This document shows, piece after piece, positions 1-15,680 of a stretch of DNA of 52,536 bases (its first letter is position 1; each line of letters starts with the position of its first letter). The DNA lies in contig CAZZKA010000001.1 in the NCBI GenBank assembly GCA_964654745.1, positions 1 through 52,536 of the forward strand. The letters run 5' to 3'. Origin of the DNA: an uncultured Bordetella sp. GTDB lineage: Bacteria > Pseudomonadota > Gammaproteobacteria > Burkholderiales > Burkholderiaceae_E. Made by a program: the position numbers and the translations under genes. The notes under the pieces are model-generated. The model saw only the letters and a list, made by a program, of their open reading frames with translations. It searched no databases and had not been told where the DNA came from.

Positions 1-739
1 AAGGCGGTCGCGGTGACCGAACTCACCGTCACGCCCTGGGCAAAGCGGATCGAATAGCCCTGCGAGGTCACCCCGGCGCTGCTGCTGTCAAATGCAACCG
101 TCACCTTGCCGCGCCCGACAAGCGCCTCGAGCGCTTCCTGGATCGCGACAGTCTGGCGGTTTTTGTCGGCGATGTAGCGAATATCAGCGGTGGTGCGCGT
201 GCCGTCGGGCATCGCAAGCTGCAGCCGTAGCTTCGCGCCGGTCACCGTGCTGGCCTGGGGCGTCAACAGGAGGTAATGGCGCGAGACCGCCGCGGCGGTA
301 CCAAGGCTCGTGACGCTGATGCTGCCCCACTCATCCTTGTACGACGGATCGGCGGGCGGGGTCATGCCGAGGCCGGTAACAAGGCGGCCGTTGTAGGCGC
401 TACCAACCAGGGTGATGGAAAACCCCGCCGCTCGCGTCCCGCCCACGGAGACTGCACCCGCGCCGAGGAGTACGTTGAGCCCTCGCGTGAGTTCGGCCGC
501 AAAGGCAGCGTCGTTCAGTCCGGTCGAGCGGATCGTTTCGCTGCGCCCGCCATAGCTGAATACGTAGGCGCCCTCACGGAAGGCAAGACTGCCATCACTT
601 GCCGTACGTGAGGCCGTCAGACGGTAGACGGTCGAGGTCATCACCCCGCCCGCCTGCAGTTCGCTCACCACGCCCTCGGCCTGCGTCTGCGCGCGGCTGA
701 TCACTTCGGGCGGCACGATGCGCACCGGCGTCTGCTTGG
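1..739 (-). repeat. Array C of GNV-signature units (at least 2, continues past the window edge)
   Basis: Codon-checked: ...LNVLLGAGAVSVGGTRAAGFSITLVGSAYNGRLVTGLGMT... and ...VAIQEALEALVGRGKVTVAFDSSSSAGVTSQGYSIRFAQGVTV. Confidence 0.7.
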
Positions 740-3700
740 TGACGGCAAATTCACCGCTCAAATTGGCAAACCCGGCGATGCCGAGTTGCACCGCACCGGC
801 AAGCTGGAAATTGCCGGACCCGTCAAACCGGGTGGCGAGCGTACCCTCCAGGGTCAGTCCGTCGACTCCGGTAACCGCCGCCACCCCGCTCACGCTGCCC
901 GACTTGGTACCGTCGGCAGCTATCAGGATCTGGCCGTTACCGCTGGAAAGCGAGACCCTGGCTGTACCCGCAGCAACCGACGCATACGCATTGCGAGCGG
1001 AGATGGTCCAGCTCTGGCCCTGGGCTTCTTCATTGAGGACCAGATCGAATTCGCCACCGAGTTCGGCCGGGCCGAACCATAGACTGCCCTTGATCGCCAA
1101 CTTGAACACTTGCGCACCGTCGGCGAGCACCAGACTGCGCCCGGGTGCCAGAGTGAGCGTGGTGCTCTGGCGGTCATCGGCACCATTCCAGTCGATGACG
1201 ACACCGCCCGGCGCGAGCAACCCGGTACTGCCGAACTGGCGGTTGATCTCGAGCGACGCGCCGGTGATGTCAGCGCGCACGCCTGCGGCCAACTCGGCCG
1301 AGCCAACCTGTGCACGGGTGGCAAGCCAGCGGCGCGCCGTCTGGCCGGTCGAAACCAGCTCGGTGGCGATCACCACGCCTAGCTGGGTCTGCTGGAGCGC
1401 GGCGCCGACGGTCGAGTTGCCAAAGCGTGCGGCAAGGTTGGCGCCGCCAACCAGCAACTGGTTGACGCGGGCGCTGCTGCCATCGCTCAGCAGAACAGCC
1501 TGATCGGTGCGCGACTCGATGAACAGATCGCCCGAGGCCTGAACCACACCGGCCAGATCGACTGACATCCTGCCGCGCGCGCGCGTCTCGTTGTCGACGA
1601 GGTCAAGGCGGTAGGTTCCCCGTGCCGTTGCTACCTCATCGACGAGTGCACTGCCCCATCGGTTGACTGCGATCAGCAGGCTGTCAGCCTTCACATCCAG
1701 ACCGGGGACGCCCGCCACCGCGACATTGCCCTCGGCGACGGCAGCGTATTGCTTCGTCACGGTCGCCGTAGCGCCGCTGCCCGTCGTGGTGTGCCGCAGC
1801 ACCACCGCGCCTGTACCGCCACTCAGGGTGATGCTCGCCGAGCCAGCGCTCAGCGAACCGTTGGCCTGATCAACGCCGATTCGGATATCGGTGACAGTCG
1901 AGGCCTGACCGTTGACCGTCTTGGTCTGCGTCGTTGATACGAGCTTGAGCTGACCCGAGACCTGTACCGCGCCGGCCACATCGATCGAGCCCTGAAGGAT
2001 GGTGATTTCCTTGCGCTCGATCCCATCGCTGAAGGCAACCGTTCGATTGGGCGAAGTCAGCCCGGTTTTGACGCTCTGACTGACCGCGCGGCCAAGCGTG
2101 TTGATCTGAACGACAGCGTCGGCCTGCAGGCTTACCTGTCCCGAGAATCCGGACAGGCTTGCCTGACCGGACGCATAAAGGGCAAAGCCAGGCTTGGCAG
2201 CGACGACGCCAACCTGCGGAGGCGTATTGCGCGAAATGACGAGACCCAACTCGGCCTGGTTGATCACCACGCCCGCGGAGGCTGTGCCAACCGCGACGTT
2301 GACGCCGGATGCTCCGATCAGGAGATAGTTATCGGGCTCAGCGACCGCCTTGAGAAGCTGCAGCTCGACCGCGGGCAGCGCCTTGCCAGTGAGCGCGCCA
2401 GTCGCTACGAGGCGGAAGGTGCCGGGCGTGCCCGCCACTTCCTGCAGCGCGATGTTGTTGCGGCCAACGCCCGGCAGACTTTCGAGCGCGGTCTTGAGTT
2501 CAGCCTGCCAGGCCTGTGCGCTCGCGGCCGCGCGCACATCGATGGTGTGCACCCAATCGGAGCCGCCGGCTGGCCGAATGCGGATCGCGCTCGCGAGCTC
2601 CCCGGTATCCGAGAACCGAAGATCGATCGTGCGTACCGCTTGCACCGCAAGGGGCGCGACGTTTCGGCCCGCGAGCGCCCCCTGGAAGCGGATATCCCAT
2701 CCACCGCCCGCCAATTCCACCGCCACGTTGCCCGAGCCGATCGTCGAAAGCGCCTCGAGGGCTGAACGCAGCGCCGCCGCGGTGAGGCCCTCCGACTGCA
2801 GCACGGTAGTGAACCGGCCATTGAAGCCGAGCTGAAAAGCACCCGCAGCGGATACCTGGAGCCTTTGCACCTCGCTCGTGGTGCTGCCGGTAGCGGTCTG
2901 CGTCAACGAGGCAGCCGGTGCCTGCCGCGGCGTCACCGTCCCCTGGAGCGGCGCAAACTGCTGGCCTACCGCGGCCCCGCCGAGCGTGACCCGCCATTGG
3001 TTTGCCGCGACATCAAAGCTGGCGCTAGCGGTCGCACCCGTCGCCGAGAATGCTCTGCCATCCGCGGTTTTTGCGGCGAGGAGCGCGCTCACGAGCGCGG
3101 CGCCGCCGGAGGTGGTGTCGTTGAGCGTGGCAAAGCTGATCGGCGCGGTCGTGTACTGACCGGCCGCACCGGTGAGCCCGCTGCTCAGCACCGTCAGCGT
3201 CGCGGCCGGTGCGGTCTGTGCGTTCACCTCCCGGCTGATCGCCGCGATACTCTGGCCGAGAGCCGATCCGCCGAAGGCGATCTGCCAAAGCCCCTGAGCA
3301 TTGACCGTGACGGTCGCTGTGACACCGGTGCTGCCAAGGCTGGCCCCGGCGGTCGCTGTCGCGGCAAGGAGCGCCGACTGGAGCGCACTCGCGCTCGCCT
3401 GCATGCTGATGGCCGCGGTGCGGAAAGTCTGCCCGCCAACCTGCAGAGACAGCGTGAAGGTGCCGGCGATATCGGCTGGCCAACGGCTGAGCGTGTGTAC
3501 CGCCCCGGTCGCGGCTGCGGTCGAACCGCTCGCGCCAGTAAGGGCGTACTGCATCCCAGCCGTGACCCCGGTATTAGTCGCGCTCAACTGCCCCAGCGCG
3601 CGCACCCGTTCGGCCATGGTCCCGGTAAAGCTGATCTCGTAGGCCTGGTCGTAGCTCGGCGACCGAATCTGCCGGACGGTGATATCGGAGGACTGGTAGA

Positions 3701-6700
3701 CCTTCTGCGGCTGGCCCGCCACATTGGCGGTCAACAGCCGCGTGCTGTAGGTGGCCGTGCTGCCGGTGAGGGCCATCAGCGCATCGATGAGATGGCGACC
3801 CTGCGAATCCTGCAGGTTGACGAATTTGACGCTGGCGGACTTCGGACTGTTTGCGAAGCTAAGCGCAAAGCTGTCGGAGTTGGTGGTCGCGCCGCCTGCG
3901 GGAACCTGAATGCGCAGCGTGTAGGCGCTCGGGATCGAGCCCGACTGCGCCTGCTGGATGACTTCACTGCGGTCCGAGGCGGCTACGGCTGCCGCGGGGT
4001 CTGTCGGCGCGCGCATGAAGAGCCCCGTGCCGCCGGCTGCACTGTCGACGGCAACCGACTGCCCAGCCCAGCTGCCAGTGAAGCGAAGCTCAAAGCCGGC
4101 GCTGCGCGAACCACTCACGAGTACATTACCGGCGCCGAACAGCTGCTCAAACGCACTGCCCAGACGCTCGCGCAATACGGTGTCGGTCAGCGCACTGCCG
4201 CTCGCGCTCAACGAGCCCACGCTGACCGTGGTCCCGGCAAAGCTGAAAGCGTAGACGCCCTCCCGGAACCGGCCGCTCGCGCTGTCGTAGGCACCCAGTC
4301 TCAGACGCGTGTCGCTGCGCGCCTGGAAATCAAAGCCGTAGGTGATCGTCCCCTCGGTCCCGGCCGGCATAAGGTCAAGCGCATGGACCGCGCCGCTGGC
4401 GGTCGTTGCCTGCGCAATCAGGTAGTTGCTGCCCCAGTCGCTGCGTTGACTTGGGTCGGCTGGCAGCGTGACCGACAGGCCCTGGATCGCCTGACCCGAG
4501 AGGGTGCCCGCGAGCGTGATCGCAAAGCCGCCTTCTTTGGTCCCGGTGACGACAGCATTGCCAAACCCAAACAGACTTTGCGCAGCCGCCTGCAGTTTCT
4601 GCAACCACACCGCGTCCTGATCGGCTGCAAGGAGCCTGACCTGAGCGCTCGCCGATCCGTAAGCAAGGCTATAGGAACCCTCGCGCACCCGAAGACTCGA
4701 GCCGCTGCCTTCCGCAACGGCGAGCCGGAAGCTGCTCGAGCTGCGGACGCCGCCCTGCTGCGTTTCGGTGATGCTGGCGGTGACCCCCGCAGTCTGAGTC
4801 GCCGTCTGGCTAGCGGGCTGAGCGGTCTGCAGAGCATTCTGCGTGACCGCGAACTGCCCGTTGATGGAAGCAAAGCCCGCAATCGCTATGTCGGCCGCTC
4901 CGGCAAGCTCAAGATTGCCCTGGCTGTCAAAGCGCGTTGCGAAAGTTCCTGTGAGGGTGAGGTCGGAGACCCCGGTCACCGACGCGGTACCTGTGATCAC
5001 TCCGCTGCGCTGAGCCGCGCCGTAGGCGCCGCTTGCATCGTTCTTGCCCAGCCAGAGGTCGCCCGTGCCGTTGCTCAGCCCAACCCGCGCGCCATTAGCC
5101 TGCAAGCCGACGGAGACATTGGTTGCCCGGATGTGCCAGGCGCGATCGCCCTGGGCAGACTGGTCGAGCTCGATATTGAACTGGCCCGACATACTCGCCG
5201 GACCGAAGGCCATCGCACCGTCGACATCAAGCTTGAAAGTACGCTGGCCCTGCGCGAAGCTCAGACTCTGGTCGGGCGAAATCGCGATCGCCGTGCTGGC
5301 CGAATCGGCGGGCCCGTTCCAGTCGATCACCGACCGGGTGCCGGACAGTTCGAGCGCGCCGTTGACGAGTTCGGTATTGAGGAGCAGGCGTGCCGAGCGA
5401 ATATCGGCCAGTGCGTAACCCTGCACTGTGGCAGCACCGAGGAGCGCCTGCGCGCTGATCCAGCGACGCGTCCCCGCCCCACGTTCGGTGCTCAGCACGA
5501 CTGCGATGTCAAGATCCCGCAGGCTCGCGCCCACCGTGCTGTTGCCCAGACTGCCCGAGATACCTGCGCCGCCAAAGATCAGCTGATTGACCGAAACCGA
5601 ATTGCCATCGGTCAGCGTCACGGTAGCCGCGTTGGCGTCGGATCGGCTCTCGATGAACATATCACCGGAAACGCTCAGCGCACCGGCAACCTCGACGTTC
5701 ATCCGGCCGCGCACGCGCGTCTCGTTATCGAGAAGATTCATCGCGTAGTCGCCCGAGCCGGTCGCGACCACCTCGTTTTCGAGGGCGCGCCCCAGGCGGT
5801 TGTAGGCGATGCTGAGCTCCTGGGCATCCAGCGTCACACCGCTGATGCCGCTCAGGGCAAGATTGCCGCCGACCTGAAGGGCGTAGCGCGATGAAGCCGT
5901 CCCGCCGCTCGGCGTAATTTTTTCGATAAGGATCGCCCCGCTCGCCCCGGAGAGCGTCGCGCCGACGCCTCCCGGGGTGAGCTGTCCGCTGACCCCGGAG
6001 AGCCCGATGCGAAGCGTGCTGGTAGTAATGCCGCCCGTGGTGACGGTCTCGGAGCGAATGCCCATCGCGCCGCGCAACTGGCCGCCAAGCGCGCTGATGC
6101 TGACCGTCCCATCGCTGATCAGCAGCTCCTTGACCGCATTACCCGAAGCGAACTCGATCGCCAGCGACGCGCCGCCGACGGTGATCGAGCGCGAAACCGC
6201 TTCTCCGAGTGTGTTGACGCGAACGGCAGCCGTTGCGCTGAGCGACAGGTCGGCCAGGCCGCTCACCCCAGCCGTGCCGTTGGCGACTAGCGCGTATCCG
6301 GACTCGCCAAGGGCGTTGCGGGCGATGTAGAGGCCAAGCGAGCCGCCCGAGATCGTGACGCCGCCGAAATCCGCCTGGACGTTGCCCAGCCCGACCAGGA
6401 GCCTGGGATCGGACGAACTGTCTTTCTCGACCGAGAAACTGCCCGACAGGCTGCCGAATCCATCGACCGCCACGGACACATTGTTGCCGGACAGGCGGAG
6501 ATTGTTGGCGCTGAAACTCGCGCTCAGCGTGCCGGAAAAACTCAATCCCGCGAGCCCTGAAACCGACGCTGTACCGGTCATGGTGCCGGTCCGGTTGGCT
6601 CCGTTCAGGTAGAAGCTGCCGCTGCCGTTGGACAGGGCCACCGATGCGCCGCTCGCCGAGACGCCGACGCTGACGTTCTGTGCCTGAATGTCCCAGATAC

Positions 6701-9700
6701 GCTGACCGCTTGCCGCGTCCTTGTCGAGCACGATCTTGAAATCGCCCGACAGGCGGGTCGGTCCGAAGTCGAGCGCACCAGAGACCGGGATCTCCCATCG
6801 GCGATCGGCCATGTTGATGAGCGCCTGCTTGCCGCTGTCGATCGCGGACAACGCGATCGTCCGCGCCTGGGCACCAGACCAGTCGAGCGCTGCGCGCGAA
6901 TTGTCTTCGATGAAATTGCCCGCCGCATCCATCGCCTGATTGAGGCGTAACTGGGCTGTCCTAAGATCGGCGAGCGCGTTGCCTAGCACATTGATCGAAC
7001 CGAGGTTGCCAAGCGCGGTAAGCCAGCGCTGACCAGCATCGGCGGCATTCTGCGAGAACACGAGCGCGAGATCGACGCCGCCAAGCTGGGCGAGCGTGCT
7101 CGACCCGGATGCGTAAACGAGCGAGAGCCCCGTGCCGCCCAACACAGTCTGGTTGAGCGATACGGTGCCGCCTCCCTGCAGGGCCTGACTGACCGCATTG
7201 CGTGCCTCGACGAATACCTCACCCGAAACGGTCAGGCCCGCCACTGACGCGGTCGCTACGCCGCTCACACGGGTCTCGTTGTCGAGCAGATCGACGGTGT
7301 AGCTGCCCGCGCCGGTATTGACCGCGAGCCCGCGCACGGCGCTGCCCAGACGGTTGTAGGCGACCCGCATCTGCGAGGCGGTGAGGCTCACCCCGGAGCC
7401 GGCGAGACTCACATTGCCCTCGAGCTGAACCGCATGCGTACTTGCCGCCGAGCCGATCTTTTTGAGGAGGATCGCGCCCGCTCCTGAGCTCAGCTGAGCG
7501 GTAAGGGCGCCCAGCGAAAGAGAACCACTCACGCCAGACAGACCGATCCGCATGTCGTTGACGGTCTGGCCATTGACGACCGATGCGCTCGAGGTGATCG
7601 CCAAGGCTCCGCTCACAGTGCCGAGTCCGGTGACGCTGAGGCTGCCGCTGGAGATCGACACTTCCTGGATTCTCGATCGGTCGGCGAAGCTGATGCTCAC
7701 CCCGCCGATCTGGGCGTTGACCGTCTGGCCAAGCGTGTTGATGCGCACCGACGCCGTCGCGGTCAAGCTGACACCTGAGAAACCATTGAGACTCGCGCTG
7801 CCATCGGCCACAAGCGCGTAGCCTGCTCCCGTCTCAGACGTGCCTGCAATGTAGAGGCCGAGGTTGGCGTTACTTACTGTCACGCCTGCGCCACCCGCGC
7901 CAAACGAGGCGGAGACCCCGGTTGCGCCGATCAGAATCTGACCGCCCGCGCTCTTGCTTGCCGTCAGGTTGCCGCTCAACGATCCGAACCCGGCGACATT
8001 TATCGCCATTGAACTGCCACTGAGGGTGAGCCCCGTTCCGCTGAACGAGGCAGAGAAGTTGCCGCTCGCCGATACGCCGGCGAGCCCCTCCACGACAGCC
8101 GTCCCGGAGATCGATCCGCTTCGGGTATTGCCGGGACCGAGCACCAGCGTGCCACTCGCGCCTTCGATGCCGACGTACGCGCCGCCGCTGCGAAAGCCCA
8201 CGCTTGCACCGGCTGCGTCGACAGTCCAGACCTTGTCTGCACCGCTCTGATCAAGCGTGATCTTGAAATCACCGGAAATCAGCGCGCCGCCAATGTCGAT
8301 CGATCCGCTGACAGGGATCTCAAATCTCGGCAGCGATTGCGCAAGGACCAGGGATTTGGTCGCTGACAGGGAAATGGTCTGCGGGTTGGTCGCCCAGTTG
8401 ATGACCGAACGCGCGGCGTCGGTGGCATGATTGGCCGCGCTGATCAACGCCCCCGCTGCGTCATAAGCACGATTGATGTGCATTTGCGCCGACTGGAGGT
8501 CGCTCAGCGTGTACCCCATGACGCTGGCCGAACTGAGCGCGGTGCTGCCGGTGATCCAGCGCCGCGCGTTGCTTGTGACGTCCTCGGTACTCACGATCGC
8601 TGCGATGTCGATGCCGCCCAGGCTCGCGATCTGGCTCGCGCCCGAACGCAGTACAGCACCGACCCCCGCGCCGCTGACGACCAGCTGCTTGGTCTGGATC
8701 TGGCTGCCGTTGGTCAGCGTGACCGTCTGCGCAAGACGGCTTTCGATCGACAGCGCGCCGCTCAGCTCCAGCGTGTCAGCGAGGGTTACGGTCGCCTGGC
8801 CATTGAGCCGGGTCTCGCCGTCCAGCATGGAGACCGCGTAGTCGCTGCTGGGGGTTGCCACCGTCGCGGCAAGCGCTTCACCCCAACGGCTGTACGATAC
8901 GCGCAGCGCCGCGTTGAGGTTGAGCCCCGGCGCGGTGAGGGCAACATTGCCATCGGCCTGAAGCGCGACGCGGCGCGTGATCGCACCGGCCGCGTCGACC
9001 TGATGGCGCAGCATCAGTGCGCCCGCCGCTCCGGTGAGCGAGGCCTGCGCGCCGCCAAGAGACAGCGTGCCGCCGGCGTTTTCAAAGCCGATCGATACGT
9101 CGGTCGTTACGACGCCGTTGCTGATCCGGTTGGTAGTGACCAGCTTGAGGTCGCCCTGCACATGCCCTAGGCCGGTGACATCAATACGGCCGTTGGTGAT
9201 CACAAGCTCTTTGCGCGCAAGCCCGTCAGCAAAAGCAAGCGTAGACGATGTGGTGAGGCCGGTGGGGATAGAAAGGTTTACAGCCTCGCCCAACGCATTG
9301 ACTCGCAACTGCGCAGCCGCCGAGAGGGTCACCGAGCCACTGAAGCCAGAAAGCGCGGCGTTGCCGGAGACCTGCAGCGCGTAGCCATCGGTACCATCGG
9401 CTCGCTTGGTGACAAGAAGCGCCAGTTCGCCGTTTTGAACCGCTGCGCCGACGCCGCCGCTGCCCACCTGCGCGGTGACACCGTTCGCACCGATCAGAAG
9501 CCGCTCCGCGCTCACCTGTGCCACGCGTGAGACCGTTGCCTTGAGCTGCGGCATGGGCGCACCGGCGAGCCCGTTGACAAAGCTCACATCGAAGGTCAGC
9601 GGTTGGCCCGCGCGCGCTTGCACCGATACATGATCCGCGCTCAGGTCGGGCAGCGACCCTATCAGCAGCTTGAGGGTCTGCGCGATCGCCTCGTCGCCAA

Positions 9701-12700
9701 GCCCGGCGATGCTTAGTTCGGCCGATACGTCGCTACGGTCGGCGAGCTGCACCGACACTGCCGTCGGTCGAAGGCCTCCGGTCATCGCAAGCGACAGCGT
9801 CTGCACCGGGAGTACCACCAGCGAAGGGACATCACGGGCGGCAAGGCCGCCCTGGTACGCCACGGTGTACTGTCCTGCAGTCCCGGTCGCCGCGACGGCG
9901 AGGTTATCGCCGCTGGAAATCGCCGGCAGTCCCGCCAACGCATCGCGCAGGCTCTGCGCGGTGAGCGTCGCCGCATCGAGGATATCGGTGGTCTGGTTCA
10001 GTCCATCGAAGGCAAGCCTGAAACGACCTGCCGGCACGGGAAGGGACAGCGTCTGAGTCTCACTGCTGGTGCTCGCCTGCCGGAAAACCGCAAGGCCAGC
10101 CTCCGGCGCAGCCACCGCACTGGTGATCCGTCCCAACATGACGTCAAGGTCAAGATCGCTCGCCGACCCGCCAAACGCCACGCGCCAGACCTTGGCACCG
10201 TCGGACTGGGTGAGCAGGTCTACGGCGAGCTCGACGCCGCGCTGCGCGAGACTTTGCCCATCGGGTGCGCGCGCGGCGAGCAGCGCAGACTTGACCTGCT
10301 GCGCCGACGCCGAAAACGAGAGCGGGCCGGTGGTATGGGTCTTGCCCTGCATCCAGAGGCTGAGCTCGAAGGTACCGACAACACGTTCGTCGTAGAGGCG
10401 AACCGTCTGCACCGCACCGATCGCCGCGCTGCCGTCGCGTGAGGTTGAGACAGATGGGCTAAGTCCCGCACTCGCCGCGCCCACCTGCAGCGCAGGAAGG
10501 TTTTGCGCCGCCAGCGTGCCCGCAAAACTTATCTGGAAGCGCGAGCTCGAAAGCGTTGAGGCGGGATCGTAGGCAACGCTCACATTGCCGGTACCGAGCG
10601 CGGTCTGCAGCGCAGTTTCGATCGCCCTTGCCTGCTTTATCACCGAAAACCCTGGTGATCCCTGCCGAACGGTCTTGAGCGCAAGCTTGATGTCCGAGCT
10701 GGAGCTGAAGCCCTGCAGCGCGGATACGTCCAGGCCCGCGCGCGCCCCCCGGAAATCGATGACGTAGTCGACGCTGTTGTGACCGGTGTAGCCCTTCTGG
10801 TAGCTCACGCTCACGTTACCCGCGCCAACCACCGCCTCGAGCGCCTGCTGCAGCTGCGCGGTGTGATAGGTCGGGTCCGCGGAAAAGCGGACCTTGCTCG
10901 TCGTACGACCGTCGAGGGACAACCAGAACTGACCCGACGCGCGGTTGGCAGCCGTGATGGTGAGCACCTGGCGCTCGTTAACCGCGCTGTCGCTGCCGTC
11001 GACGACAATCGGCGCGGTAACCGAGCCGGCCAGCGACAGCGTGAAACTGCCTCCCGCACCCGAAGCGCGGTTGAGAACCAGCTGCTGGACTTCGCTGCGC
11101 GCGATCTGCATCGCAGCGGTTTCTTCGATGACGCCCCAATCGTTTTTATCGGCGGGATCCGGCGGCTGGATCAGCCACAGCCCGGGTTGGTCGCCTGCCG
11201 AGGCGAGCGCGATCGGCTGGCCAGCAAGCGAGCCGATGAATTCGGCGTCAAATCCTCCGGTGCGCGTTCCCTTGACCTGAACATTGCCGGCACCCACGAC
11301 CGCGAGCCGCTCGAAGGCGGCCTGGATCCTTGCTGCGAGTACCTCATCGGTGACCGGCCGGCCGGCTGCGGTGTCGGCATCGAGCGTGCTGAAGGTCTGG
11401 CTCTGCCCGCCCCAGCTGATGGTGTAGAGGCCCTCGCGAGTGAACTTACCGGTCTGATCCGACACGTTGAGGCGAACGACTGCTGTGGTGATCTCACCCC
11501 CGGCGCGGCTCGTCCCTACCGTCGCGCCCGCGCCTACCGTGCTGCTCAGACTCTCGAAAACCGGTACCGACTGAATGGCTGGCTCGCGGATAACCGAGAA
11601 CGAACCCGCAAGCTGACCGACCCCGGCGATGCCGAGCTCCATCGCACCTGCGAGCTTTAGCCGATCGTTGGCAAAGCTTGCGCTCAGACTGCCGCTGGCC
11701 GAGACCCCGTTGATACCCGTGACGGATCCATCGCCAGACAGGGTGCCAGTCACGCCCGACGAAGAGATTCGCAGATCACCGGTGACGTTTTCGATGCTCG
11801 CGCGCGCGCCATTGGCCTGCAGCGAAACGCTCGCATTGGTGGCCAGCACCTGCCACGCCGGGACCGTCTGGCCGTTCTCGACGACGCTACCCGCAACCAC
11901 ATGGAAAGTTCCGCTGATCTGCGCGCCGCCGATCGCAAGCGTGCCCTGCACCGCCGTGGCGAGCCGCGAGACCTGGGTATCGAGGACAAGGGCCGCCGTA
12001 TCGCTAATGACCAACGGCAGGCCGGCACTGTTGGCACCAGGCCGCCAGTTGATGACTTTTTCGTCGCCCCCCGCGTAAAGGGCGCCATCACTCGCGAGCT
12101 GCCGGTTGATGTCGAGCATGCCGATATCGATGCTCGCCCGTGCGACTCCAGTCACCTCGGCCGAGCCGACGGTCGCGCTCGTGCTGAGCCAGCGTCGCTG
12201 CGCACCGGTGGTTTCGGTGCTGAGCGCCATGGCGAGATTGACATTACCCAACGCCAGGCTCGCGCCCGCGCGTACGCTTGCCGACAACCCCGCGCCACCG
12301 AGGAGCAGCAGGTCGGCCGTCGCGGTGCTGCCGTCGCTCAGGGTGAGCGTCTGGTTGCGGCGCGACTCGAGGAAAATGTCTCCCTCAGCGCTCAACCAGT
12401 CACCGATGCCCACAGCGGCATAGCCGCGTACCCGGGTCTCGTTATCGATCTGGTCCATCAACACCCAGCCGCCAGGCGTGGCGATACTGCGTTCGACAGC
12501 CGCGCCGCTGCGGTTGATACCGACCTGCAGTCGCTGGGCGCTCAGGCTCAGTCCCGCAACGCCGGTGAGCGCCGCTTCGCCCTCGGCCTGGATCGCATAG
12601 CGCAGAACGGGCTGGTTGCTGACGGTCTCTGAGAACAGAAGGAGGGCGCCGCTTCCTCCCGACAGCGAAACAGCAGGGCCACCGAGGCTGAGCGAACCCG

Positions 12701-15680
12701 ACAGCCCATCGATACCGACCTCCAGTTGTTGCCGGGTGGTCGAGCCGATAGCCACCTGCCTGCTGTCGATGCGGAGACTGCCGGCAAGCGAGCCCCAGGA
12801 CCCGAGTTGCAACGTCGCATTGGCGATCGATACCGAGCTCACCGGCCGCTCATCGGCAAATGCCATCGCAACCGTGCTGCCATCGGCGAGGGTCAGGGTT
12901 TCATTGACGCTTGCGCCCAGGCGATTGATTTCGACGCGCGCTCGCTGCGCTGACAAGGAAAACTGATTACCCGCCGTGCTGAGCGCGGCCCCGCCCTCAG
13001 CGACGAGCGCGAACCCTGCCTGACCCACCGCATCGGTACGGAGGATGAGGCCAAGCCTCGCATCGGTCACTCTGACCTGGGCACCGGACGATCCGATCAA
13101 CGCGTTGAGCCCGGTCCCGGCGATGATCAGGCGGTCACCGGCAGGGGTGGTTTGGCGGCTGATGCTGAGGTTGCCGCTGATCTCGCCGAAGCCCGCCACC
13201 GCGAGGGTGGCACCCGCCAAGCTGACCGAATAGGTCCCGGCGGCCCCGTCGAAGACGACCCGGCCCGCTGTAGCGGTAAGGGTCAGGCCCGCCACGCCAC
13301 CGATTTCGATCTGGCCGCTCAGCTCGCCGCTGCGGCGGCGCTCGGCATCGATGCGCAGTTGCCCACTTGCCTGGTTGAGACGCACGAAGGCCGGGCCTGC
13401 AGCAAGCAGCCACTGGGCATTGGCGATGCTCAGCTGCCAGGCGTTGGCGAGCCGCTCATAGGCGATCGTGAACTGGCCCGAGAGGCGGTTGTCGCCCAAC
13501 ACGAGCGCGCCCTGAACAGGCAGGCTGAGGACATCGCCCACCTGATCGAGCACAAACTGGCGGCCGGAAGCGAGCGTAAAGCGGCGCGCCTCAGCCCAAT
13601 CGATGGTCACGCCCTGAAGGTTCTGCGCCACCGTAATCGCGCGGTTGATCGACCACTGGGCGGATTCGAGATTGTCGAGGGCATAGCCAGCAACCACCAT
13701 GGCCTTGGCCGCGCCGCGGCTCGAAAGCCAGCTGTTGCCGTCCTTATCCCGGGCATACACCAGAGCGAATTCGGCCTCGGTGGCGGAAACTGCGCCTGAA
13801 CTGGAAGCGCCAGGAATGAGCGCGACCAGACCGCGCGATCCCGAAAGCGCGTACTCGGTGAGTTGGATCGTCTGCCCGTTGGAGAGCAGGCGCACCCGCT
13901 TTTGCGCATCGAGCGCGAGATCACCCTCAAGCCGGCCCAGGCCCTGCACCTGAATCGCAAAACGGCCGCTCATCTGCAGCGCGTTGGCCGGCAGGTCGAC
14001 CAGCAGGTCGCCACCACCGGGGAGCTTGAGCGAGCGCAGCAGCGCCTGATCGTGTTCGTTGTAGCTCAGCCTCACCCGCTGCCCGGTCAGCTGAACCGCA
14101 CTGTCCAGGGCGACCGACACATCGAGCAGACCCTGAACCGCGGTCCGACTGGTGGCCTCGCCCAGCCCCGTAGTCGGACTTGAGGTGCGGAAAACGACGC
14201 CCAGCGCGCCATTCTGTCCCGCGAGGGTCAGCAGGCCGAGGCTGAGTTCGGCTGCGGTCAGTTGGACACCGACCAGCAGCTCCTGGGTGGTGACGCCCTC
14301 CGCGGCCTCGGTCTGGCTCGCAAAGGTCACGCCCCCTTTTACCCAGCCCAGGCTGCCCAGCTGTAACGTCGCGTCACTCGCCTCGAACCGTCCGCCCGGA
14401 CTGTCGCTCGAGGCGAGATAGGACACCGATCCCTGCATCGAGACGCCGGCGCCTGCCTGCAGCGTCGCAGCGCCGCTCACCTGCAGGCTGAAGCGCGCGG
14501 GCGCCGAGGAAATCGACAGCGCGCCGTCGGAGAGGAGCAGCGCCGCACCCCGGGCCGGGTCGCCGGCGCGCATCTGCAGACCCTGCGCCGACACAGAGAG
14601 GACGCCCTGCGCCTGATCGTAGCCGAGCGTGAAATTGCCGGCGATCGACGGCCCGCTTCCGGCCGAAAGCGAGCCCTGCCCGGTCAGGCTCGCCTGCAGG
14701 GTCCCCGGACCCATCACCAGTTTGCCGGCGAGATTGGTCAGCGCTCCGTTCAAACCCGGCAGAGACCACTGCGCATTGACGCTCTGGGCAGTCAGCGTGG
14801 TCTCGACCTGGTTACCGGCCAGCAGGCCGACGGCGACCTGCCAGGTACCGGATAGCCTCAGGCCCGATATGTCGAGCGAAGCATCGAGCGATACAGCTGC
14901 CTGCGAAACCTGGTTGGCAACTTGGGTGAGCCATTGGTCCAGGGCCTGCTGCGCTTGTGGTATGGAAGCAACATTTAGCTGTTGTAAACCTGGCAATTGC
15001 GTTGCAACCAGCCGCAGACGGTTTGCCTCGTAGAGCGGCTTGAGAAAAATTCCGTTGCCCGCATAGAGCCCGGTGTAGCTCGTGAAAACGCCCTGACGCG
15101 ACGACCAGGTCATCACATCAAACACCTGGCCGGCGGTCGGTCTGAAATCGTTTATGAAATCGAGCGACAGGGTCCCAGCCAGCTTGGCCTCGCCCGATAC
15201 AGCGACTCGATCGTAGCCATCGAGTACCTGCGGCTGGCCTGCGCCGGGTGTGAGGCCGCCGATTTCGATCTTGAGTTTGCCGCTGGCCTGTTGCTCGAAA
15301 GACTGGACCGTCAGGATCCCTGGCGACTCACCCGGTGCGACCACTCCGCCGTTATTGAGCGGACCATCCCACACACCCGTGCCGAGCAGCGTGTAGCCCT
15401 GATTTAACGCAAGCGACTGGCCTTGCTCAGAGGGAGAATTGAGGTTGAGGAGCGATCCGGAGGGCGATTGCAACTGCAGCGGGTCGCCGGTTGCGGCGCC
15501 GGGCCACTGGGTCTGCGACGCGCTCGAACTGTCATCGGCGAGCACCTGCAAGGGCGCCGATTCGGCCGCTCGCACCTCGGGCTGATCGGAGCCGCTGACA
15601 GGCAAATCCGCCGCCAGCAGGATCCGCTGCTCAAGGACTTCCACCCGAACCGCAGGCAAAGCTTTTTTGCGTTTGGCCAA
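1..15680 (-). CDS. Giant repetitive secreted/surface protein, LEPR-XLL-like N-terminus, C-terminally truncated by the window edge (>=5,226 codons)
   Basis: I scanned every 60-nt line in the minus frame whose codon first bases fall at coordinates = 2 mod 3. No in-frame stop (plus-strand CTA/TCA/TTA) occurs from 15686 down to 1. The first upstream in-frame stop is TGA at 15689-15687. The proposed start is TTG at 15680-15678, with AAGGGGG (reverse complement of 15691-15697) 10 nt upstream. Hand translation is coherent at both ends: N-terminus MAKRKKALPAVRVEVLEQRILLAADLPVSGSDQPEV, window edge ...LVGRGKVTVAFDSSSSAGVTSQGYSIRFAQGVTVSSVTATA. The ORF track omits it because it has no stop inside the window. 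No track ORF inside the gene body is in this frame. Confidence 0.9.
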   Translation of the reverse strand, partial: MAKRKKALPAVRVEVLEQRILLAADLPVSGSDQPEVRAAESAPLQVLADDSSSASQTQWPGAATGDPLQLQSPSGSLLNLNSPSEQGQSLALNQGYTLLGTGVWDGPLNNGGVVAPGESPGILTVQSFEQQASGKLKIEIGGLTPGAGQPQVLDGYDRVAVSGEAKLAGTLSLDFINDFRPTAGQVFDVMTWSSRQGVFTSYTGLYAGNGIFLKPLYEANRLRLVATQLPGLQQLNVASIPQAQQALDQWLTQVANQVSQAAVSLDASLDISGLRLSGTWQVAVGLLAGNQVETTLTAQSVNAQWSLPGLNGALTNLAGKLVMGPGTLQASLTGQGSLSAGSGPSIAGNFTLGYDQAQGVLSVSAQGLQMRAGDPARGAALLLSDGALSISSAPARFSLQVSGAATLQAGAGVSMQGSVSYLASSDSPGGRFEASDATLQLGSLGWVKGGVTFASQTEAAEGVTTQELLVGVQLTAAELSLGLLTLAGQNGALGVVFRTSSPTTGLGEATSRTAVQGLLDVSVALDSAVQLTGQRVRLSYNEHDQALLRSLKLPGGGDLLVDLPANALQMSGRFAIQVQGLGRLEGDLALDAQKRVRLLSNGQTIQLTEYALSGSRGLVALIPGASSSGAVSATEAEFALVYARDKDGNSWLSSRGAAKAMVVAGYALDNLESAQWSINRAITVAQNLQGVTIDWAEARRFTLASGRQFVLDQVGDVLSLPVQGALVLGDNRLSGQFTIAYERLANAWQLSIANAQWLLAAGPAFVRLNQASGQLRIDAERRRSGELSGQIEIGGVAGLTLTATAGRVVFDGAAGTYSVSLAGATLAVAGFGEISGNLSISRQTTPAGDRLIIAGTGLNALIGSSGAQVRVTDARLGLILRTDAVGQAGFALVAEGGAALSTAGNQFSLSAQRARVEINRLGASVNETLTLADGSTVAMAFADERPVSSVSIANATLQLGSWGSLAGSLRIDSRQVAIGSTTRQQLEVGIDGLSGSLSLGGPAVSLSGGSGALLLFSETVSNQPVLRYAIQAEGEAALTGVAGLSLSAQRLQVGINRSGAAVERSIATPGGWVLMDQIDNETRVRGYAAVGIGDWLSAEGDIFLESRRNQTLTLSDGSTATADLLLLGGAGLSASVRAGASLALGNVNLAMALSTETTGAQRRWLSTSATVGSAEVTGVARASIDIGMLDINRQLASDGALYAGGDEKVINWRPGANSAGLPLVISDTAALVLDTQVSRLATAVQGTLAIGGAQISGTFHVVAGSVVENGQTVPAWQVLATNASVSLQANGARASIENVTGDLRISSSGVTGTLSGDGSVTGINGVSASGSLSASFANDRLKLAGAMELGIAGVGQLAGSFSVIREPAIQSVPVFESLSSTVGAGATVGTSRAGGEITTAVVRLNVSDQTGKFTREGLYTISWGGQSQTFSTLDADTAAGRPVTDEVLAARIQAAFERLAVVGAGNVQVKGTRTGGFDAEFIGSLAGQPIALASAGDQPGLWLIQPPDPADKNDWGVIEETAAMQIARSEVQQLVLNRASGAGGSFTLSLAGSVTAPIVVDGSDSAVNERQVLTITAANRASGQFWLSLDGRTTSKVRFSADPTYHTAQLQQALEAVVGAGNVSVSYQKGYTGHNSVDYVIDFRGARAGLDVSALQGFSSSSDIKLALKTVRQGSPGFSVIKQARAIETALQTALGTGNVSVAYDPASTLSSSRFQISFAGTLAAQNLPALQVGAASAGLSPSVSTSRDGSAAIGAVQTVRLYDERVVGTFELSLWMQGKTHTTGPLSFSASAQQVKSALLAARAPDGQSLAQRGVELAVDLLTQSDGAKVWRVAFGGSASDLDLDVMLGRITSAVAAPEAGLAVFRQASTSSETQTLSLPVPAGRFRLAFDGLNQTTDILDAATLTAQSLRDALAGLPAISSGDNLAVAATGTAGQYTVAYQGGLAARDVPSLVVLPVQTLSLAMTGGLRPTAVSVQLADRSDVSAELSIAGLGDEAIAQTLKLLIGSLPDLSADHVSVQARAGQPLTFDVSFVNGLAGAPMPQLKATVSRVAQVSAERLLIGANGVTAQVGSGGVGAAVQNGELALLVTKRADGTDGYALQVSGNAALSGFSGSVTLSAAAQLRVNALGEAVNLSIPTGLTTSSTLAFADGLARKELVITNGRIDVTGLGHVQGDLKLVTTNRISNGVVTTDVSIGFENAGGTLSLGGAQASLTGAAGALMLRHQVDAAGAITRRVALQADGNVALTAPGLNLNAALRVSYSRWGEALAATVATPSSDYAVSMLDGETRLNGQATVTLADTLELSGALSIESRLAQTVTLTNGSQIQTKQLVVSGAGVGAVLRSGASQIASLGGIDIAAIVSTEDVTSNARRWITGSTALSSASVMGYTLSDLQSAQMHINRAYDAAGALISAANHATDAARSVINWATNPQTISLSATKSLVLAQSLPRFEIPVSGSIDIGGALISGDFKITLDQSGADKVWTVDAAGASVGFRSGGAYVGIEGASGTLVLGPGNTRSGSISGTAVVEGLAGVSASGNFSASFSGTGLTLSGSSMAINVAGFGSLSGNLTASKSAGGQILIGATGVSASFGAGGAGVTVSNANLGLYIAGTSETGAGYALVADGSASLNGFSGVSLTATASVRINTLGQTVNAQIGGVSISFADRSRIQEVSISSGSLSVTGLGTVSGALAITSSASVVNGQTVNDMRIGLSGVSGSLSLGALTAQLSSGAGAILLKKIGSAASTHAVQLEGNVSLAGSGVSLTASQMRVAYNRLGSAVRGLAVNTGAGSYTVDLLDNETRVSGVATASVAGLTVSGEVFVEARNAVSQALQGGGTVSLNQTVLGGTGLSLVYASGSSTLAQLGGVDLALVFSQNAADAGQRWLTALGNLGSINVLGNALADLRTAQLRLNQAMDAAGNFIEDNSRAALDWSGAQARTIALSAIDSGKQALINMADRRWEIPVSGALDFGPTRLSGDFKIVLDKDAASGQRIWDIQAQNVSVGVSASGASVALSNGSGSFYLNGANRTGTMTGTASVSGLAGLSFSGTLSASFSANNLRLSGNNVSVAVDGFGSLSGSFSVEKDSSSDPRLLVGLGNVQADFGGVTISGGSLGLYIARNALGESGYALVANGTAGVSGLADLSLSATAAVRVNTLGEAVSRSITVGGASLAIEFASGNAVKELLISDGTVSISALGGQLRGAMGIRSETVTTGGITTSTLRIGLSGVSGQLTPGGVGATLSGASGAILIEKITPSGGTASSRYALQVGGNLALSGISGVTLDAQELSIAYNRLGRALENEVVATGSGDYAMNLLDNETRVRGRMNVEVAGALSVSGDMFIESRSDANAATVTLTDGNSVSVNQLIFGGAGISGSLGNSTVGASLRDLDIAVVLSTERGAGTRRWISAQALLGAATVQGYALADIRSARLLLNTELVNGALELSGTRSVIDWNGPADSASTAIAISPDQSLSFAQGQRTFKLDVDGAMAFGPASMSGQFNIELDQSAQGDRAWHIRATNVSVGLQANGARVGLSNGTGDLWLGKNDASGAYGAAQRSGVITGTASVTGVSDLTLTGTFATRFDSQGNLELAGAADIAIAGFASINGQFAVTQNALQTAQPASQTATQTAGVTASITETQQGGVRSSSSFRLAVAEGSGSSLRVREGSYSLAYGSASAQVRLLAADQDAVWLQKLQAAAQSLFGFGNAVVTGTKEGGFAITLAGTLSGQAIQGLSVTLPADPSQRSDWGSNYLIAQATTASGAVHALDLMPAGTEGTITYGFDFQARSDTRLRLGAYDSASGRFREGVYAFSFAGTTVSVGSLSASGSALTDTVLRERLGSAFEQLFGAGNVLVSGSRSAGFELRFTGSWAGQSVAVDSAAGGTGLFMRAPTDPAAAVAASDRSEVIQQAQSGSIPSAYTLRIQVPAGGATTNSDSFALSFANSPKSASVKFVNLQDSQGRHLIDALMALTGSTATYSTRLLTANVAGQPQKVYQSSDITVRQIRSPSYDQAYEISFTGTMAERVRALGQLSATNTGVTAGMQYALTGASGSTAAATGAVHTLSRWPADIAGTFTLSLQVGGQTFRTAAISMQASASALQSALLAATATAGASLGSTGVTATVTVNAQGLWQIAFGGSALGQSIAAISREVNAQTAPAATLTVLSSGLTGAAGQYTTAPISFATLNDTTSGGAALVSALLAAKTADGRAFSATGATASASFDVAANQWRVTLGGAAVGQQFAPLQGTVTPRQAPAASLTQTATGSTTSEVQRLQVSAAGAFQLGFNGRFTTVLQSEGLTAAALRSALEALSTIGSGNVAVELAGGGWDIRFQGALAGRNVAPLAVQAVRTIDLRFSDTGELASAIRIRPAGGSDWVHTIDVRAAASAQAWQAELKTALESLPGVGRNNIALQEVAGTPGTFRLVATGALTGKALPAVELQLLKAVAEPDNYLLIGASGVNVAVGTASAGVVINQAELGLVISRNTPPQVGVVAAKPGFALYASGQASLSGFSGQVSLQADAVVQINTLGRAVSQSVKTGLTSPNRTVAFSDGIERKEITILQGSIDVAGAVQVSGQLKLVSTTQTKTVNGQASTVTDIRIGVDQANGSLSAGSASITLSGGTGAVVLRHTTTGSGATATVTKQYAAVAEGNVAVAGVPGLDVKADSLLIAVNRWGSALVDEVATARGTYRLDLVDNETRARGRMSVDLAGVVQASGDLFIESRTDQAVLLSDGSSARVNQLLVGGANLAARFGNSTVGAALQQTQLGVVIATELVSTGQTARRWLATRAQVGSAELAAGVRADITGASLEINRQFGSTGLLAPGGVVIDWNGADDRQSTTLTLAPGRSLVLADGAQVFKLAIKGSLWFGPAELGGEFDLVLNEEAQGQSWTISARNAYASVAAGTARVSLSSGNGQILIAADGTKSGSVSGVAAVTGVDGLTLEGTLATRFDGSGNFQLAGAVQLGIAGFANLSGEFAVTKQTPVRIVPPEVISRAQTQAEGVVSELQAGGVMTSTVYRLTASRTASDGSLAFREGAYVFSYGGRSETIRSTGLNDAAFAAELTRGLNVLLGAGAVSVGGTRAAGFSITLVGSAYNGRLVTGLGMTPPADPSYKDEWGSISVTSLGTAAAVSRHYLLLTPQASTVTGAKLRLQLAMPDGTRTTADIRYIADKNRQTVAIQEALEALVGRGKVTVAFDSSSAGVTSQGYSIRFAQGVTVSSVTATA
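740..2333 (-). repeat. Super-repeat module M5 (~531 aa)
   Basis: Begins DNYLLIGASGVNVAVG. Core is TYRLDLVDNETRARGRMSVDLAGVVQASGDLFIESRTDQAVLLSDGSSARVNQLLVGGAN (DNETR at 1581-1595). Also contains ARRWLAT, IDW, GEFDLVLN. Ends GIAGFANLSGEFAVT. Confidence 0.85.
2334..4841 (-). repeat. Array B of about seven ~100-aa GNV-signature units
   Basis: Codon-checked unit at about 2640-2880: TSEVQRLQVSAAGAFQLGFNGRFTTVLQSEGLTAAALRSALEALSTIGSGNVAVELAGGGWDIRFQGALAGRNVAPLAVQ. Other units end GAGNVLVSGSRSAGFELRFTGSWAGQSVAV, LWQIAFGGSALGQSIAAI, QWRVTLGGAAVGQQFAPL, GTFRLVATGALTGKALPAV. Confidence 0.8.
4842..6410 (-). repeat. Super-repeat module M4 (~523 aa)
   Basis: Begins DPRLLVGLGNVQADFGG. Core is AYNRLGRALENEVVATGSGDYAMNLLDNETRVRGRMNVEVAGALSVSGDMFIESRS (DNETR at 5715-5729). 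Also contains TRRWISA, IDW, GQFNIELD. Ends AGFASINGQFAVT. Confidence 0.85.
6411..7950 (-). repeat. Super-repeat module M3 (~513 aa)
   Basis: Begins GGQILIGATGVSASFG. Codon-checked core is NTGAGSYTVDLLDNETRVSGVATASVAGLTVSGEVFVEAR (DNETR at 7269-7283). Also contains GQRWLTA, LDW, GDFKIVLD. Ends DGFGSLSGSFSV. Confidence 0.85.
7951..9510 (-). repeat. Super-repeat module M2 (~520 aa)
   Basis: Begins ERLLIGANGVTAQVGSGG. Core is DYAVSMLDGETRLNGQATVTLADTLELSGALSIESRLAQTVTLTNGS (DGETR at 8808-8822). Also contains ARRWITG, INW, GDFKITLD. Ends VAGFGSLSGNLTAS. Confidence 0.8.
9511..11589 (-). repeat. Array A of about six ~100-aa GNV-signature units
   Basis: Codon-checked example at 10741-10980: NERQVLTITAANRASGQFWLSLDGRTTSKVRFSADPTYHTAQLQQALEAVVGAGNVSVSY...VIDFRGARAGLDVSAL. 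Other units end GNVQVKGTRTGGFDAEFIGSLAGQPIAL, GTGNVSVAYD...FQISFAGTLAAQNLPAL, YTVAYQGGLAARDVPSL, FDVSFVNGLAGAPMPQL. Confidence 0.75.
11590..13140 (-). repeat. Super-repeat module M1 (~517 aa)
   Basis: Begins GDRLIIAGTGLNALIGSSGAQVRV. Core is WVLMDQIDNETRVRGYAAVGIGDWLSAEGDIFLESRRNQTLTLSDGS (DNETR at 12432-12446). Also contains QRRWLS and INW. Ends GIAGVGQLAGSFSV. Confidence 0.8.
13141..14290 (-). repeat. Degenerate, shortened copy (M0) of the ~520-aa super-repeat
   Basis: It keeps the C-terminal-half landmarks: GYALDNLESAQWSINR, IDW, LSGQFTIAY...W, AVAGFGEISGNLSISR. It lacks a clean DNETR/FIESR core. Confidence 0.5.
14291..15680 (-). other. N-terminal head region of the giant protein (leader plus SPGILTV-type segment)
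   Basis: Translated segment: LEQRILLAAD ... GTGVWDGPLNNGGVVAPGESPGILTVQSFEQQASGKLKIEIGGLTPGAGQPQVLDGYDRVAVSGEAKLAGTLSLDFINDFRPTAGQVFDVMTWSS. The PGxSPGxLTV ... G.L.IE.GG ... D.v.V.G.a.LaGtL pattern is common in heads or tails of very large beta-solenoid surface proteins. Confidence 0.6.

Follow-up and report, generated by a model that had tools for sequence, protein, structure and literature searches.

Six ancient copies of an all-β module of about 520 residues at the core of a giant protein in a freshwater Burkholderiales bacterium

The window analysed here is a stretch of 52,536 nucleotides (contig CAZZKA010000001.1, positions 1 to 52,536, of assembly GCA_964654745.1) from a freshwater Burkholderiales bacterium listed as an uncultured Bordetella sp. 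At its left end the minus strand carries the 5' part of a giant gene, and the core of the encoded protein is made up of six ancient copies of an all-β module of some 520 residues. The reading frame concerned is free of stop codons from 15686 to 3, a run of 5,228 codons that is still open at the left end of the window. Its probable start is the TTG codon at 15680, with a Shine-Dalgarno sequence, AAGGGGG, lying approximately 10 nt upstream. The features of the gene are collected in Table 1.

The giant gene, its modules and its linkers

The coding nature of the frame was assessed through codon composition and through comparison with relatives. The G+C content at third codon positions (GC3) is 0.78, compared with 0.76 in neighbouring genes. 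Measured against a collinear orthologue from a Burkholderiales metagenome-assembled genome (MAG), here called L005 and 66% identical, the ratio of non-synonymous to synonymous substitution rates (dN/dS) lies between 0.17 and 0.21 in every module and in the linker, and the giant gene is therefore both real and constrained. In addition, an independent 'Betaproteobacteria bacterium' MAG at NCBI holds a fragment that is 100% identical to the window protein. The protein, as far as it is contained in the window, has no cysteine among its 5,228 residues, consists to 65% of Ala, Gly, Ser, Leu, Val and Thr, and bears a net charge of -48. On the opposite strand there is an open reading frame (ORF) of 1,009 codons at 2865-5894 (+), with G+C contents of 0.79 at first and 0.63 at third codon positions; because this pattern mirrors that of the giant-gene frame, the ORF is not a gene itself but the shadow of a repetitive, high-GC one.

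Table 1. Features of the giant gene in the window (residues numbered along the window protein; bit scores are those of the module hidden Markov model)
Feature	Position (nt)	Strand	Residues	Remarks
Giant gene, 5' part only	3..15680	-		at least 5,226 codons from TTG 15680; C-terminal part off window
LEPR-XLL motif	15600..15647	-	14-29	VEVLEQRILLAADLP; NCBIfam NF012209
N-terminal region	14613..15599	-	30-358	weak partial S4-like end, residues 244-360
M0	13155..14612	-	359-844	full-length, most diverged copy; model positions 1-519, 537 bits
M1	11586..13142	-	849-1367	650 bits; landmarks present
Linker LA	9513..11585	-	1368-2058	small-domain string; without Pfam match
M2	7953..9512	-	2059-2578	664 bits
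M3	6423..7949	-	2580-3088	653 bits
M4	4839..6413	-	3092-3616	689 bits; copy modelled
M4 sub-unit S1	6057-6413	-
M4 sub-unit S2	5643-6056	-
M4 sub-unit S3	5160-5642	-
M4 sub-unit S4	4839-5159	-
Linker LB	2337..4838	-	3617-4450	about 8 small α/β domains, predicted
M5	735..2336	-	4451-4984	687 bits
Linker LC, start only	3..734	-	4985-5228	cut by window end; continues in L005 and L008

When a hidden Markov model (HMM) derived from the copies is run on the window protein, it matches at full length six times, with scores from 537 to 689 bits. A preliminary description of this DNA, made from the sequence by eye, had recognised five modules with shared landmarks in one ORF, and this is borne out: the ordered landmarks are found in M1 to M5, all in a single minus-strand frame. 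The positions given for the D(N/G)ETR codons (12432, 8808, 7269, 5715 and 1581) are exact, and the spacings of 1539 and 1554 nt reported for the directly tandem copies M2-M3-M4 accordingly hold. The sixth copy, M0, had been taken for a C-terminal half confined to 13141-14290 but is instead full-length, reaching beyond 14290 to 14612. It is 27-28% identical to the other modules, its closest counterpart being the corresponding first module (m0, 41%) of P0008, a relative from a Magnetococcales MAG.

The equivalent of a repeat dot-plot was obtained through BLASTP of 250-residue tiles of the window protein. All module pairs among M1 to M5 align end to end, with identities of 30-47% and E-values down to 3e-55, and the tandem copies M2-M3-M4 show offsets of 511-521 residues, confirming the expected periodicity of about 1.55 kb. 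The gaps between tandem modules amount to just 1-4 residues. Taken over their length, module pairs share 27-44% identity as protein and 42-54% as codon-aligned DNA, a lower figure than the two-thirds that had been estimated; identity at third codon positions is 33-43%, and no exact run in common is longer than 16 nt. As expected at a DNA identity of this order, Tandem Repeats Finder found no repeat in the DNA. Ungapped autocorrelation, blurred by insertions and deletions, makes visible only a higher-order lag of 2,237-2,406 residues.

The module is itself composite, a point overlooked in the preliminary description. Each copy consists of four diverged sub-units, S1 to S4, of around 105-160 residues, the ancestral unit having about 125. 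In profile-profile comparison of module quarters, hhalign gives probabilities of 98.6% for S1 with S2, 93% for S2 with S4, 81% for S1 with S4 and 75% for S1 with S3. BLAST aligns S1 of one module with S2 of another, out of register by 129 residues (E 8e-8), and a terminal motif, G..h.G.h.h, is common to all four sub-units. Moreover, an S1-like unit occurs in plain tandem, in at least 10 copies with a period of 122-128 residues, in the giant LEPR-XLL proteins P0012 (Methylococcaceae MAG) and P0022; P0005 also has plain tandem S1-like units. Since hhalign, BLAST, the shared motif and the plain-tandem relatives agree, the 520-residue super-repeat represents an older unit arrayed in the fixed order S1-S2-S3-S4. 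S3, enlarged to 161 residues, is barely recognisable as a copy of that unit. An unrelated giant gene from metagenomes (L001/L002, 7984-21842), whose gene calls are fragmented, encodes an N-terminal PATR piece of autotransporter type followed by plain tandem units of about 125 residues homologous to S1.

The linkers are repeated as well, BLAST finding LA collinear both with residues 3614-4486 (LB) and with residues 4997-5216 (LC). On a larger scale, the block M1-LA-M2 (7953-13142, residues 849-2578) is collinear with M4-LB-M5 (735-6413, residues 3092-4984) at a lag of approximately 2,240-2,400 residues, and the start of both blocks recurs in M5-LC. Module-plus-linker blocks have been duplicated too, and the protein is built in a three-level hierarchy leading from the unit of about 125 residues to the four-unit module of 520 residues and on to the block of module and linker. 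A motif, L..AL..L.G.GNV.V...F.G.LAG, recurs in the linkers, none of which has a Pfam match; LB, in addition, has no match among PDB sequences.

At the N-terminus, the NCBIfam model NF012209 ('LEPR-8K') scores 18.1 bits on the window protein against a curated cut-off of 17. The LEPR-XLL class is defined by this N-terminal motif of about 24 residues only, the 520-residue module having no model of its own, and by the sole criterion that the class possesses the window protein is, on its sequence, a member. The same N-terminal motif is present in the relatives P0008, P0010, P0012, P0053 and P0061. Beyond it, residues 1-358 have no Pfam or NCBIfam match, a result to be read in the knowledge that Pfam-type scans can miss the retention modules of RTX adhesins (10.1101/2025.09.30.679566). 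The S4-like stretch at the end of the N-terminal region is a partial HMM match of 9 bits, and BLAST aligns its residues 259-356 with residues 1238-1338 (E 2e-5). P0008 (233-356) and P0010 (257-414) show the same weak segment at comparable residues, and the N-terminal region also contains a Gly- and Pro-rich stretch of around 130 residues (approximately 100-235).

Relatives, age of the duplications and continuation beyond the window

The profile HMM, the building of which had been proposed as a means of mapping the distribution of the module, was searched against 1.84 billion representative proteins and yielded 757 matches at E-values up to 1e-3. A full-length module is present in 21 of the 150 best of these; word-indexed protein searches returned only 7-8 fragments. 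Among the named sources of relatives are Rhodoferax, Polaromonas, Sphaerotilus, Lacisediminimonas, Litoricola, Magnetococcales and one 'Nitrospinae' MAG, and the proteins are annotated as 'LEPR-XLL domain-containing', 'beta strand repeat-containing' or 'hypothetical'. In the literature 'LEPR-XLL' appears in two papers, only in passing, and the label 'Beta strand repeat-containing protein' is a generic one.

Comparison of modules by position proved informative as to their age. P0008 is 42.6% identical overall to the window protein, with modules at the same residues, and its modules are 40-51% identical to those of the window at the same position but 30-46% to those at other positions. Corresponding figures are 69-72% and about 29-44% for L005, and 44-50% and about 28-40% for L007, from a Litoricola MAG. 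Since each module is nearest to its positional counterpart and not to its paralogues, the sequences indicate that the duplications are ancient, that they predate these gene lineages and that the copies have not undergone concerted evolution. The earlier suggestion of an old duplication, as opposed to a recent and recombination-prone one, is thereby upheld, the DNA identity between copies also being near saturation. In the Litoricola locus (L007 1-22319, contig JAGYKJ010000005.1) the orthologue is split among five or more overlapping ORFs, all on the same strand, by frameshifts that stem either from faulty assembly or from decay of the gene.

Orthologues that are 66-67% identical to the window protein and collinear with it over 3,900-4,100 residues give a view of what follows off the window (L005 14834-22330; L008 3127-13125; L006 7419-14879). 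The order seen there is the rest of LC, a seventh full module, a lone S1-like unit, approximately 2,000 residues without match and then an RTX block, which lies around 2,200 residues after module 7. This block contains seven GGxGxD nonapeptides, is matched by Pfam HemolysinCabind (2.6e-12) and has PDB matches to the β-rolls of CyaA and serralysin. After it come at least 1,100 residues whose pattern is β-helix-like, the frame being still open where the locus ends. For comparison, the window protein itself has no RTX nonapeptide run, a single isolated match (GASGVN) to the loose pattern G..G.[DN] being present in its 5,228 residues. The reported absence of RTX runs and, by Pfam, of cadherin, VCBS, FG-GAP and haemagglutinin-type repeats stands for the window; as regards RTX it does not extend to the orthologues, with their RTX block further downstream.

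One orthologous ORF, open at both ends, has 7,443 residues. L008, the continuation from Polaromonas, begins to overlap with the window protein at residue 5024 and runs for 4,375 residues, again still open; the window protein and L008, if joined on the strength of their sequence overlap, imply a total length of more than 9,400 residues.

Predicted fold and proposed role of the module

Family searches gave no name to the module. Pfam and NCBIfam, run on the whole window protein, have no family match inside the modules, and run on 21 module sequences produce nothing consistent, the best E-value being 0.014 and any one match occurring in no more than two of the 21. Searching every PDB sequence with a profile of the module returned nothing at E-values up to 10. 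Nor do the modules have a Pfam match to Ig-like extender families (BIg, cadherin or other immunoglobulin-like domains).

The structure of M4 was predicted with AlphaFold2 on an alignment of 21 module sequences. The predicted local distance difference test (pLDDT) score is 85.6 and the predicted template modelling (pTM) score 0.74, all five models lying within 3 pLDDT points. The model contains 33 β-strands, mostly of 11-18 residues and joined by turns of 2-5 residues, and no real helices. S1 and S2 display the same pattern of strand lengths: four long, two short, two long. The strands are amphipathic, the alternation of hydrophobic and polar residues amounting to 1.96 compared with 1.17 +/- 0.16 in shuffled sequences. 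As modelled, then, the module is an antiparallel hairpin meander and not a classical parallel β-solenoid. Foldseek comparison of the model with the PDB retrieved only large β-barrels and lipid-binding β-sheets, at template modelling (TM) scores of 0.19 or less and root mean square deviations (RMSD) of 20-30 Å, without an Ig fold among them, and comparison with BFVD produced nothing above a TM score of 0.22. No curated family and no solved fold accommodates the module, and the earlier statement that it could not be named holds across Pfam, NCBIfam, PDB sequence and fold searches.

A different picture was obtained for the linkers. For LB, modelled from a shallow alignment of four rows, AlphaFold2 gives a pLDDT of 69.5 and a pTM of 0.32, with domains of about 100 residues arranged as strand-strand-helix-strand-strand. 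On this model the linkers would resemble a string of beads, unlike the module, for which a rigid body is predicted. Foldseek matches of LB in the PDB are confined to low TM scores (0.24 or less), to tail-tip and capsid chains of phage Bxb1 and to FliD, and are to be taken as a lead and not as an assignment.

On balance we consider it probable that the protein is an extracellular, Ca2+-stabilised fibre in which the modules set length and stiffness while the small-domain strings and the distal regions make contacts. Since modules abut within 1-4 residues and each is predicted as one rigid body, the sheets of tandem modules are expected to continue one another, which would produce a long, stiff rod of layered β-sheet. 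Such a rod could serve as the extender or stalk of the fibre, holding away from the cell the distal parts of the chain, namely the seventh module, the stretch of some 2,000 residues, the Ca2+-binding RTX β-roll and the β-helix-like tail, and these in turn might make contact with other cells or with surfaces. The strings of small domains would then represent flexible or ligand-facing segments. By analogy with RTX proteins, the chain is probably exported unfolded and folds outside the cell with the assistance of Ca2+; that the giant protein binds Ca2+ and is extracellular we likewise regard as probable. Among the points counted in favour of the extender are the repeat hierarchy, the positional orthology and low dN/dS of the modules, the LEPR-XLL start, the lack of cysteine, the RTX block of the orthologues and the difference between rigid module and flexible linker models.

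Several observations pull in the other direction. The geometry of the layered rod and its continuity across module boundaries are predictions drawn only from secondary structure and pTM. Scans of metagenomes for the true C-terminus and the genes beside it came up empty, and a protein search yielded fragments only. In the orthologues the RTX block lies at least 1,100 residues from the end of the available sequence, unlike that of canonical substrates of type I secretion systems (T1SS), and no secretion-system genes, those of a T1SS included (ABC transporter, membrane fusion protein and TolC), are found in the 37 kb upstream of the giant gene. Finally, the position-specific conservation of every module exceeds the needs of a passive spacer.

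This last point fits somewhat better the leading alternative, which we regard as possible though unlikely, that the modules are a working surface: an extended amphipathic β-sheet with a hydrophobic face that binds membranes, lipids or hydrophobic surfaces, or that pairs with a second chain. For two giant proteins of Chlorochromatium, Cag_663 and Cag_665, models have led to the same proposal concerning their N-terminal β-sheet regions (10.64898/2026.03.19.712371). The alternative can draw on the amphipathic strands, although these are expected in any β-sandwich, and on the separate conservation of every module position across distant lineages, with a dN/dS as low as that of the linkers or lower. 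The neighbours retrieved by fold search are, moreover, all long antiparallel sheets of lipid-holding or membrane proteins (LptD, ApoB100, LPD-3), but every match has a TM score of 0.19 or less: among outer-membrane barrels and lipid-transfer β-grooves (LptD, TamA, LPD-3, ApoB100) that 0.19 is the best superposition, far from a TM score of 0.5. The architecture, too, is like that reported for the Chlorochromatium proteins, in which a long β-sheet region with spaced small domains precedes a Ca2+-binding β-helical part; against this, the likeness depends on the description given in a preprint (10.64898/2026.03.19.712371), in which the structures are themselves predictions.

There is also a bolder proposal, which we put forward as speculation and think doubtful. 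The S1-S4 module might be the building block of a new fibre architecture, a continuous layered or clefted ribbon of antiparallel β-sheet hundreds of ångströms long, common to the LEPR-XLL megaproteins of Proteobacteria and to the proteins by which cells of phototrophic consortia, and magnetotactic bacteria, make cell-cell contact. The amphipathic sheet, and not terminal ligand-binding domains, would in that case mediate cell-cell contact or transfer.

Other folds for the module fare less well than the hairpin rod of the favoured extender. The preliminary description had named a β-solenoid as the fold to test for, and a shaft of classical parallel β-helix, like that of filamentous haemagglutinin or of autotransporter passengers, would suit the composition rich in Gly, Ala, Ser, Thr, Val and Leu, the database name 'beta strand repeat-containing protein' borne by relatives and the far C-terminal tail of the orthologue L008, with its β-helix-like sequence pattern. 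The AlphaFold2 model, however, has long antiparallel hairpins in place of the 3-6-residue strands and 18-25-residue coils of such a shaft, the 21 module sequences have no Pfam match to Fil_haemagg, PATR, pertactin or another β-helix family, and no β-helix is found among the Foldseek matches; a parallel β-helix is on these grounds disfavoured, and we consider it very unlikely. More improbable again is that each module forms an outer-membrane-type β-barrel or pore-forming unit. Outer-membrane barrels are indeed the top Foldseek matches (LptD at E 3.7e-4, BtuB and TamA) and Pfam Phage_OMP weakly matches two of 21 modules (E 0.014). Yet the superpositions have TM scores of 0.09-0.16 and an RMSD of around 30 Å, the Phage_OMP matches fall below any threshold, 33 strands is an odd number for a single barrel, and the six to seven copies lie in one soluble-looking chain without a signal peptide; together the poor superposition, strand count and multi-copy chain rule against a barrel.

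Least credible of all is the view of the long ORF as artefactual (be it an open but non-coding frame of high GC, a chimeric assembly or a pseudogene), a reading which could appeal to database relatives that are nearly all partial or fragmented and to a Litoricola copy split by frameshifts, but which is refuted for practical purposes by 15.7 kb free of stops in one frame only, by a GC3 like that of the neighbours with an antisense ORF as its mirror image, by collinear orthologues of 66-67% amino-acid identity at a dN/dS of about 0.2, and by the identical fragment in an independent MAG.

Comparison with known systems and genomic surroundings

Giant repetitive secreted proteins are a known kind, to which the present one probably belongs. 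The likeness to LEPR-XLL giant proteins (NF012209) consists in the N-terminal motif, above its cut-off, and in size class, with at least 5,228 residues here. RTX adhesins of the LapA, MpIBP and FrhA type are composed of a retention module, extenders of Ig-like type and, at the C-terminus, a β-roll with T1SS signal, the extenders being Ig-like domains of about 100 residues of which neighbours are often at least 80% identical (10.1101/2025.09.30.679566). With these the window protein has in common its giant size, the lack of cysteine and a repetitive β-rich centre, as well as the RTX β-roll block of its orthologues, and a shared role is likely to be the projection of distal domains from the cell. 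In contrast to the adhesin extenders, however, the units here are four-part β-meanders of 520 residues, each conserved at its position and sharing 27-44% identity with the others. The N-terminus is of LEPR-XLL type, with no retention module detected by Pfam or NCBIfam, and the RTX block of the orthologues is followed by at least 1,100 further residues of available sequence. By analogy, the giant protein would resemble an RTX adhesin in its working but not in having Ig-like extenders.

The plain tandem arrays of units of about 125 residues ('beta strand repeat' or 'large repetitive protein': P0012, P0022 and P0005) are homologous to S1 and S2 at 45-65 bits per unit, and have the same unit length and terminal G.F.hE motif as the module here. 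They repeat one unit type, whereas the module locks four differentiated units in a fixed order. Cag_663 and Cag_665, according to the preprint's description, share with the window protein a predicted long antiparallel β-sheet without structural match, spaced small domains and a Ca2+-binding repetitive C-terminal part, the models there and here being predictions only; at 20,000-27,000 residues, by the figures of the same source (10.64898/2026.03.19.712371), they are of another size. Relatives of these two proteins have been reported in magnetotactic bacteria (10.64898/2026.03.19.712371), which may be compared with the origin of P0008 in the Magnetococcales.

The usual account of giant repetitive surface proteins is a string of Ig-like beads of about 100 residues, and the putative extender found here is a different one. 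That the copies are conserved position by position over a large evolutionary distance suggests that they are not interchangeable, which is unusual among extender repeats. A family model for the module would annotate many megaprotein fragments now called 'hypothetical', and the module offers a clean target for structure determination, possibly of a new β-architecture.

The remainder of the window, from 15943 to 52091, holds ordinary betaproteobacterial housekeeping genes. A P-type cation ATPase is divergently transcribed, and other neighbours include two TctC/Bug receptors, branched-chain ABC transporter genes, a LigXa-like Rieske oxygenase and a TRAP transporter, together with a UDP-glucose dehydrogenase, a histidine kinase, an acyl-CoA synthetase and oxygenases.

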